64,000 bases of DNA from an uncultured bacterium (GCA_963807165.1 CAWDZM010000001.1:577471-641470), one strand, 5' to 3'. Shown: positions 4,181-4,298, counted from the stretch's first letter. Program-made: numbers and translations. The notes: generated from the letters alone by a model not told the origin.

Positions 4181-4298
4181 GCCTCGCATATAAGTAATCG
4201 CCTTTTGGGGCATTCCGGAGCCGCGAAGGCGGCGAGGCATAGCGATTTTTCAGCAGAAAAATACGCGGCCCTAAAAGGCGATTACTTATATGCGAGGC
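4181..4298. repeat. 118-bp element with perfect 26-bp terminal inverted repeats (large hairpin); terminator, attenuator or MITE-like
   Basis: gcctcgcatataagtaatcgcctttt (4181-4206) is the exact reverse complement of 4273-4298. An inner gccgc-gaag-gcggc hairpin is present. It lies between the histidine-kinase stop and the pyrG start. Confidence 0.6.

Follow-up and report, generated by a model that had tools for sequence, protein, structure and literature searches.

The window, a 64,000-nucleotide stretch of the genome of an uncultured bacterium, carries on its minus strand a sensor histidine kinase gene (HisKA/HATPase_c, positions 4298–5635), a conserved orthologue labelled Paceibacterota in NCBI records, and pyrG, which encodes CTP synthase (2433–4118; the ATG at 4118 is the in-frame start that matches the orthologues). 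The two genes are separated by a large palindromic element, element A (4181–4298), with the kinase directly upstream of it in the direction of transcription. The preliminary description had placed the element between the kinase stop codon and the pyrG start, and it does lie there: the TAG at 4298–4300 overlaps one arm by 1 nt, and the ATG is found 62 nt past the other arm. A candidate pyrG promoter (TTGCCC-17-TACAAT, 4129–4157, minus strand) is located downstream of the element, would leave a leader of only a few nucleotides, and is conserved in orthologous spacers that carry no element.

Element A consists of a long stem (P1) capped by a three-way junction, and both strands fold in this manner. 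The perfect 26-bp inverted repeat around 66 nt reported earlier is present (4181–4206 pairs with 4273–4298), and the stem runs inward to 31 bp via a single G·U pair (4207/4272), so that its 5′ arm spans 4181–4211 of the plus strand, with 4207–4211 as the proximal continuation, and its 3′ arm, which adjoins the kinase stop codon, spans 4268–4298. Pairing also extends weakly outward to 4171/4308, giving 41-nt arms with 88% complementarity. The conserved core (4212–4267, plus strand) contains a short helix P2 (4215–4216 with 4236–4237), an internal loop in which GGA (4217–4219) faces GA (4234–4235), hairpin 1 with a GAAG loop (4220–4233, the inner gccgc-GAAG-gcggc hairpin noticed before), a junction AG (4241–4242), and hairpin 2 (4243–4265) with a bulged A at 4263 and the apex UCAGCAGA at 4250–4257. 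The predicted folding energy of the plus strand is −79.3 kcal/mol, compared to −36 ± 3.5 kcal/mol for shuffled sequences (z = −12.4).

A second member of the family had been proposed at 47379–47493 and is indeed found, shifted by one position, at 47380–47494 (element B, plus strand). Its 27-bp perfect arms (47380–47406 and 47468–47494) enclose 61 nt that constitute the core (47407–47467), with the UCAGCAGA apex at 47448–47455. The fold of element B is that of element A, but their stem sequences are wholly different. The two cores share the arrangement C-GGA-(5-bp stem with a GAAG loop)-GA-G, followed by the junction AG and another hairpin, in which an A or AA is bulged and UCAGCAGA forms the apex. 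The 3′ arm of element B overlaps by 3–4 nt the 3′ end of a tRNA-Gly(UCC) gene on the opposite strand (47491–47562, minus strand), and on the tRNA strand the hairpin is followed by UUUUAUU. Neither arm of either element has another copy within the 64 kb, even at three mismatches. The attactt-ataag sequence thought to be shared by the arms of A and B sits in opposite arms relative to the core; there is no conserved distal-arm sequence in about 37 further members, and a 7-mer shared between two arms is expected by chance in an estimated ~5% of cases.

The window contains several other palindromes. The stretch 39301–39384, between a DksA-like gene on the minus strand and a divergently oriented UPF0102 gene on the plus strand, is an inverted repeat whose 33-nt arms are 91% complementary and whose 18-nt loop, GGGTTCACCCTCCGGGAT, is of unrelated sequence. 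It includes the repeat at 39310–39375 that had been regarded as similar in form; it has no core and is not matched by the covariance model described below, and so does not belong to the family. Gene orientation flips at this site and the cumulative GC skew has its minimum there; a replication origin near 39 kb was considered and rejected, the neighbours being NusA, the DksA-like gene and UPF0102, with no dnaA. Three perfect palindromes with 16–19-bp stems and loops of 1–4 nt (20115–20151, 38901–38942 and 39662–39697) look like ordinary bidirectional intrinsic terminators, because the arms of the first contain A6/T6 tracts. tRNA-Ile with a UAU anticodon is uncommon in bacteria; around the one in the window (48348–48420) lies a perfect inverted repeat of 17 bp (88% over 25 nt; span 48325–48431), and the leader repeats in inverted form the tRNA's final ~12 nt together with 12 nt of trailer, so that it holds a pseudo 5′ acceptor strand. 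The layout of this tRNA gene, with the 3′ flank copied onto the 5′ side, is shared with the hairpin family.

Element A is one copy of an undescribed dispersed repeat family of Paceibacterota/Patescibacteria (CPR) genomes. A pattern derived from the cores of A and B, GGAGNNNCGAAGGNNNCGAGN{3,30}TCAGCAGA, was searched against viral contigs, where it has no matches, and against species-representative genomes, where it matches 54 loci, 50 of them in Patescibacteria and often several per genome (labelled Paceibacterota, Minisyncoccia, Nomura-, Kaiser- and Taylorbacteria, and in some cases Saccharibacteria). The four matches outside Patescibacteria have neither a flanking stem nor a covariance-model match and fit chance, since about two chance matches are estimated for this pattern. 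When 39 long-arm copies were used to build a covariance model, A and B scored 81 and 84 bits, the next match in the window reached 12 bits, and 64 copies were identified in 427 kb of fetched loci. The chromosome OY970354.1 carries at least 10 copies within the fetched loci, and the density is roughly one element per 30–80 kb. The suggestion of a genome-wide family of large hairpin repeats is thus borne out, with several copies per Patescibacteria genome. Each element is ~105–150 bp long, intergenic and has no gene of its own.

The family is not matched by described RNA families. At the gathering threshold, Rfam 15 finds only tRNAs in the window, and in the window plus 23 loci it leaves the element unmatched, its only matches (tRNA, rRNA, tmRNA, group I intron and LOOT) lying elsewhere; at E ≤ 10, positions 4100–4400 give just spurious miRNA and thermometer matches far under threshold. 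The literature on CPR hairpin repeats, terminators and structured RNAs yielded nothing relevant. An origin from 23S rRNA, considered because of a supposed likeness to GGAGGAGCACGAAGG, was dismissed after no significant match was found to the 23S rRNA in L052. On motif inspection, the defining sequences of SRP RNA, Y RNA, K-turn, box C/D, hammerhead and other ribozymes, and retron msr/msd are absent.

The conserved unit of the family is a three-way-junction module of about 60–75 nt with covarying stems. It comprises a 3-bp helix, a GGA/GA internal loop, a 5-bp GAAG hairpin and a longer bulged hairpin with the UCAGCAGA apex. Across 39 copies, no variation is seen in GGA and the GA that faces it, in hairpin 1 at its closing pairs and GAAG loop, or in UCAGCAGA. 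A covariation analysis of the three helices finds 94.5% of the core cells paired, with two-sided changes in 12 of the 19 core pairs (139 cells), a result reached by none of 500 shuffles; the covariation score is 0.516, compared to 0.131 for shuffles and 0.04–0.09 for slid controls. One-sided changes, which give G·U, are confined to six cells of the core. The arms contain 935 Watson–Crick pairs, 9 G·T, 7 A·C and 4 others, and the wobbles favour neither strand. Since the covarying stems are nearly all Watson–Crick, either strand can fold, and the fold is kept equally on both. The motif strand is the more stable one by fold energy in 37 of 43 copies; assignment of the strand by this measure was nevertheless rejected, as direct counts of G·U and A·C are symmetric (8 and 7 in long-arm copies). 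Because the counts lack asymmetry, the energy advantage of the motif strand probably stems from the conserved loops.

Outside the core, conservation is limited to about 8–10 bp of proximal stem. The perfect arms run from 10 to 46 bp and their distal sequences are unrelated between about 39 copies; even copies from the same genome combine identical cores with different arms (e.g. L029/L046 and L021/L040). Where the arms come from is indicated by three copies. In L050, a PerM/AI-2E family gene ends inside the 46-bp 3′ arm, which takes in its final nine codons and its stop; the encoded tail, QDWS[ST]KRR, is conserved in about 29 homologues, so it must be the 5′ arm that was copied, in inverted form, from native coding DNA. 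The distal part of the 3′ arm in L029 and L061 is the −35 box of pyrG, CCCTTTGC, and relatives free of the element have this box too. These alignments show the long perfect arms to lie outside the conserved unit, the 3′ arm of the motif strand apparently being native flank and the other arm its inverted copy. The rule that the 3′ side is native draws on L050, L029, L061 and the analogous tRNA-Ile of the window, and for copy A it would depend on weak similarity only. The idea that the arms are spacer-like copies of other DNA was discarded: the window arms are unique in 64 kb, and arms match the adjacent flank.

The elements are placed at gene boundaries, and asymmetrically so. By a crude ORF heuristic for boundaries, 25 of 35 copies have their 3′ arm no more than 35 nt from a gene boundary, compared to 3 of 35 for the 5′ arm. 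The 25 boundaries include 13 stop codons and 8–9 tRNA 3′ ends, all on the opposite strand, and four gene starts on the same strand. Some copies adjoin the 23S rRNA processing stem and others are located within the 23S–5S spacer. This leader–trailer stem is a perfect 25-bp duplex, GCAAGTCAGCATTGGGATGGTTGGC, in L022 (456–589) and L010 (6769–7040), which belong to the same chromosome (OY970354.1); further loci in the 23S rRNA region are L052 (4180–4345) and L030. Family elements flank the 23S stem directly on its outside, on both sides and mutually inverted, and the 23S–5S spacer contains two elements, one of them partial.

The comparison of orthologous kinase–pyrG spacers, which the preliminary description had proposed, was carried out and reveals spacers that are empty, reduced, or filled in the opposite orientation. 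In L060 and L062 (kinase identities of 88% and 82%), the spacer is ~70 nt long and has no element. In L058/L059 (87%), there is only a small hairpin, cgccTTTTCTGCGGGAAAAtccg, which is like hairpin 2 and has the orientation seen in the window. In L029 (81%), one or more extra genes follow the kinase, and an element of the opposite orientation with 31-bp perfect arms is found just upstream of the pyrG promoter. L061 (82%), L063 (80%) and L056/L057 (86%) are arranged as L029: the arms are about 80% complementary in L061, the locus ends inside the element in L063, and the arms are decayed in L056/L057, where the loops are mutated to GAAA and CAGUAGA. Judging by these spacers, the element is dispensable at the kinase–pyrG locus. 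In every orthologous spacer with an element, the pyrG promoter sits between the element and the ATG. Of note, L056 (2852–3620) and L057 carry an Amidase_2 gene between the kinase and the element, followed by the sequence gggaaggggatttct, which resembles the 3′ end of the kinase gene itself and suggests a duplication made at insertion.

Elsewhere, identical cores are found at unrelated loci and different cores at related ones. In two sets of non-orthologous loci from different species (L007/L020/L045 and L021/L040/L023b), the cores agree at all 63 aligned columns (100% identity), and core subtypes differ at orthologous loci (L020 versus L023b, L010 versus L030). At three orthologous tRNA-Glu loci, whose flanks were inspected, the cores are 79–82% identical and the tRNAs differ by just a few compensatory changes, and at one tRNA-Pro locus the orthologous palindrome encloses the core in L052 and an unrelated 18-nt loop in L022 (968–1035). 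With sites empty or decayed in relatives, these comparisons show the core to behave as a cassette. This behaviour fits spread or replacement by a trans-acting machinery or by gene conversion, possibly across species. An all-against-all clustering of 590 neighbouring ORFs detects no recurring neighbour protein family, only orthologous housekeeping neighbours, and no transposase, integrase or reverse transcriptase is associated with the copies among these ORFs. Genes located between paired copies are rpmE, prfA and the like. No target-site duplication flanks A, B or the listed copies, and the copies have no terminal repeats in common.

Five tRNA-linked copies (L045 3733–3860, L033, L016, L005 and L052) carry a structured module of ~110 nt beyond the element, on its upstream side. 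The element and this module are bracketed by a 14–19-nt direct copy of the tRNA 3′ end, from the T-loop to the acceptor end, which makes the arrangement attachment-site-like. On the tRNA strand, the modules of L045, L033 and L016 contain a GGAG-hairpin-UGA-GG motif with a loop of the CAGCAG type, and in L033 a second full element adjoins the tRNA fragment.

Single variants of the core are found in 11 genomes inside a tRNA operon, on the tRNA strand (L034 3415–3555, L011, L012, L015, L041; L042 4563–4658, L018, L025, L037, L003 and L006). They are about 110–130 nt long, with a 4–5-way junction, a 13-bp terminal stem and many G·U pairs; their outer stems are short and imperfect, and hairpin 2 is extended and G·U-rich. 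The variant of Nomurabacteria is bracketed by a 14-nt direct repeat of the 5′ end of the next tRNA, and in L042 and L018 the 5′ arm of the variant can pair with either the trailer of the preceding tRNA or the 3′ arm. One variant searched in Rfam at E ≤ 10 has no match. The motif strand of the variants shows an excess of G·U (9 versus 2), and this suggests a genuine RNA.

Palindromes with other loops exist in the same genomes. In the fetched loci and the window (~468 kb together) there are 25 perfect palindromes with stems of at least 16 bp whose apex is not exactly UCAGCAGA; the chance expectation is far under one, and some five of the 25 represent diverged or partial cores. One further family has a loop module of roughly CTCGCTCC-R-ACGU-ARGA-ACGU-CC-R-CUCGCU and is represented in the window at 13408–13483, where 23-bp arms flanked by A/T tracts lie between ruvC and a PBP gene, as well as in L009 (3762–3831) and L008 (6892–6986). 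A third loop module, AATCCCGAAGGGTGAGCCC, occurs twice in L009 (3199–3291 and 3887–3983), inside perfect palindromes of 37 and 26 bp. Since long palindromes with other conserved loop modules occur in the same genomes, the phenomenon is broader than one core.

Taken as a whole, the data are best explained by a cassette-like palindromic repeat that would work in place as a terminator or processing hairpin, an explanation in which our confidence is evenly balanced. At neither A nor B does the motif strand have a predicted sigma-70-like promoter, and A and B are therefore most likely transcribed as the complement of the motif, A at the 3′ end of the kinase mRNA and B as the 3′ trailer of tRNA-Gly. 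On the minus strand, the kinase transcript would end with element A, before the promoter of pyrG is reached, and the element may serve there as a strong hairpin terminator, an insulator or an RNase III-type processing site. Transcription and exonucleases alike are strongly hindered by a 31-bp duplex, which is also a natural substrate of RNase III. Siting at tRNA, rRNA and mRNA ends would support such a role. The earlier reading of element A as a very strong terminator is plausible as an in-place effect, but leaves the conserved core unexplained, and on the gene strand the hairpin is followed by AAUACCAUAUUU and has no U-tract. A terminator consensus scan gives no match at A or B, although its stem and loop size limits exclude a structure of this shape; family-wide, the number of downstream T residues is slightly higher on the minus strand (4.6 versus 3.3 of 12).

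The origin of the arms may be sought in the core itself. The folded core could nucleate intramolecular template switching (snap-back synthesis), by which the 3′ flank would be copied onto the 5′ side, and the same process might both build the arms and keep them perfect. Template switching is an accepted route by which quasi-palindromes become perfect (PMC5941160, PMC7202029), and it would explain changes on both sides of a stem at once. Growth of the arms would stop at sequences that must stay out of a hairpin, for instance at a stop codon, at the end of a tRNA or at the −35 box of a promoter. The invariant loops, in turn, may be recognised by a trans-acting factor responsible for spread or processing.

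The invariant loops, the intact structure at vertically inherited loci and the discrete cross-species subtypes would fit a selected RNA gene family as well. The elements would then be small structured trans-acting RNA genes, the core a functional protein-bound RNA and the subtypes paralogues comparable to tRNA isoacceptors, an interpretation that we regard as rather unlikely. Under the same interpretation, the long arms would be leader–trailer stems cut by RNase III, like those at rRNA and at the tRNA-Ile of the window. Invariant loops with strong stem covariation, discrete subtypes 100% conserved across species, the position of copies at the flanks of tRNA and rRNA genes, and the same arm architecture around tRNA-Ile (48348–48420) all speak for RNA genes, as do the single-copy variants in tRNA operons, which lie on the tRNA strand and combine the 9-versus-2 G·U excess with a tRNA-acceptor-like terminal stem. 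The long-arm copies, however, have no wobble bias (8 G·U versus 7 A·C), the motif strand is antisense to the adjoining gene in most copies and sense in others, and no sigma-70-like promoter is seen on that strand at A or B. Promoter-like hexamers are not enriched family-wide either: TANNNT at a fixed distance shows no clear enrichment (9 of 35 versus 2 of 35, with an estimated ~5 by chance). Furthermore, the element is missing or decayed in close relatives at the kinase–pyrG locus, and different subtypes occupy orthologous loci. The near-pure Watson–Crick pairing of arms and core on both strands, and folding in both orientations, could instead point to a signal in DNA, in which a cruciform or single-stranded junction would be bound or nicked by a recombinase, an HUH endonuclease, or a segregation or uptake machinery, and the RNA would be incidental. 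The identical cores across species and the 14–19-nt direct repeats of tRNA 3′ ends around the element and its ~110-nt module at five attachment-site-like loci agree with such a signal, which we still consider improbable: no recombinase, HUH or transposase gene is found near any copy, the density of ~1 per 30–80 kb is far sparser than that of known uptake sequences, and the siting tracks transcript ends rather than replication features.

The remaining explanations fare worse. A MITE-like insertion had been suggested, and the multi-copy, geneless, intergenic nature of the element, its length of about 105–150 bp, its inverted-repeat ends and its variable presence among relatives are in keeping with a conventional MITE, i.e. 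an insertion sequence reduced by deletion and mobilised by a transposase through its terminal inverted repeats. It is the centre that is conserved here, however; the terminal repeats are wholly different between copies and copied from the local flank, there is no visible target-site duplication, and no parent insertion sequence is seen, all of which makes a MITE very improbable. A device dedicated to the kinase–pyrG pair, either a pyrG leader attenuator or a one-off strong terminator, is scarcely credible despite the very stable stem between the kinase stop codon and pyrG. The candidate promoter lies between the element and the ATG and is conserved in relatives without the element, so the attenuator is rejected; the orthologous spacers of L060 and L062 wholly lack the element, and the same core stands beside unrelated genes in many genomes.

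It is possible, and we put it forward tentatively, that the family belongs to one of two new classes. One would be a CPR cassette consisting of a ~60-nt three-way junction, RNA or single-stranded DNA, whose invariant loops are read in trans; it would pass from locus to locus and from species to species, and seed self-extending perfect palindromes by snap-back copying of the DNA beside it, coding sequence included. The other would be a structured-RNA multigene family with tRNA-like conservation, set free from long processing stems where tRNA, rRNA and mRNA transcripts end. The presence of at least two further conserved loop modules in similar palindromes of the same genomes would make this a general system and not a single repeat.

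The genomes of CPR/Patescibacteria are tiny and are thought to be poor in repeats and in mobile DNA, and to our knowledge their non-coding content is almost unexplored. The family reverses the usual design of bacterial palindromic repeats, in that the centre is conserved and the arms are local and apparently self-made, and it would be a case from nature of palindromes growing by template switching, with coding and promoter sequence among the DNA copied. Since its members stand where transcripts of tRNA, rRNA and protein genes end, they bear on RNA termination and processing in CPR, and their invariant loops predict a binding partner. Perfect palindromes of 26–46 bp are also a hazard for the assembly and annotation of metagenome-assembled genomes, in which the covariance model can annotate them.

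Among known systems, the family is reminiscent of REP/BIME, REPINs, ERIC, Correia (NEMIS, of Neisseria) and RUP/BOX (of Streptococcus) elements, which are small (about 100–150 bp), geneless, multi-copy intergenic palindromes of varying presence that are co-transcribed and whose long RNA hairpins can terminate or stabilise transcripts or be cut by RNase III. In REP-type families, however, the arms are the conserved sequence, whereas here the arms are locus-specific and copied from the flank and the central three-way junction is conserved; in addition, no RAYT or transposase partner is seen near the copies, and the hosts are Patescibacteria. Because the arms are not the conserved part, the element falls outside what defines MITEs and probably also outside what defines REP-type repeats. 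Integron attC sites are likewise structured (57–141 bp), highly diverse in sequence and recognised in a folded, single-stranded form, but in them the ends (R and L boxes) are conserved, the centre varies and some bases are extrahelical, while the elements described here have a conserved centre and variable perfect ends. An attC assignment, which would call for conserved R″/L″ and L′/R′ boxes at the ends, was rejected: conservation is reversed, and there is no integrase or cassette array nearby. TIGR arrays, which were reported from parasitic bacteria and phages, also have variable palindromic stems around loops with small conserved motifs; their units form tandem arrays beside a Tas (Nop-domain) gene and carry variable loop spacers (PMC12045711). 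The present copies are dispersed singly among housekeeping genes, with an invariant loop module and no Tas gene nearby, and a TIGR assignment was rejected.

The correction of quasipalindromes by template switching (PMC5941160, PMC7202029) turns imperfect repeats into perfect ones and would account for the perfect arms, the scarcity of G·U and the two-sided changes; it is known as a mutational process at short repeats, and is not known to build 30–46-bp arms around a conserved cassette from coding or promoter DNA. Like intrinsic terminators, the elements follow genes and tRNAs at their 3′ ends, their stem is stable and contains GC pairs, and they would act in both directions; copy B is followed by UUUUAUU, but terminator stems are 5–12 bp long compared to 26–46 bp here, and the loop of the present elements is a conserved structured module of 60 nt. 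Finally, the leader–trailer stems of rRNA and tRNA precursors are long duplexes that join the flanks of a structured RNA, as exemplified in this dataset by the perfect 25-bp stem of 23S rRNA in L022/L010 and the 17–25-bp stem of the window tRNA-Ile; in the family described here, the enclosed unit is instead a 60-nt module, which occurs in both orientations relative to transcription.
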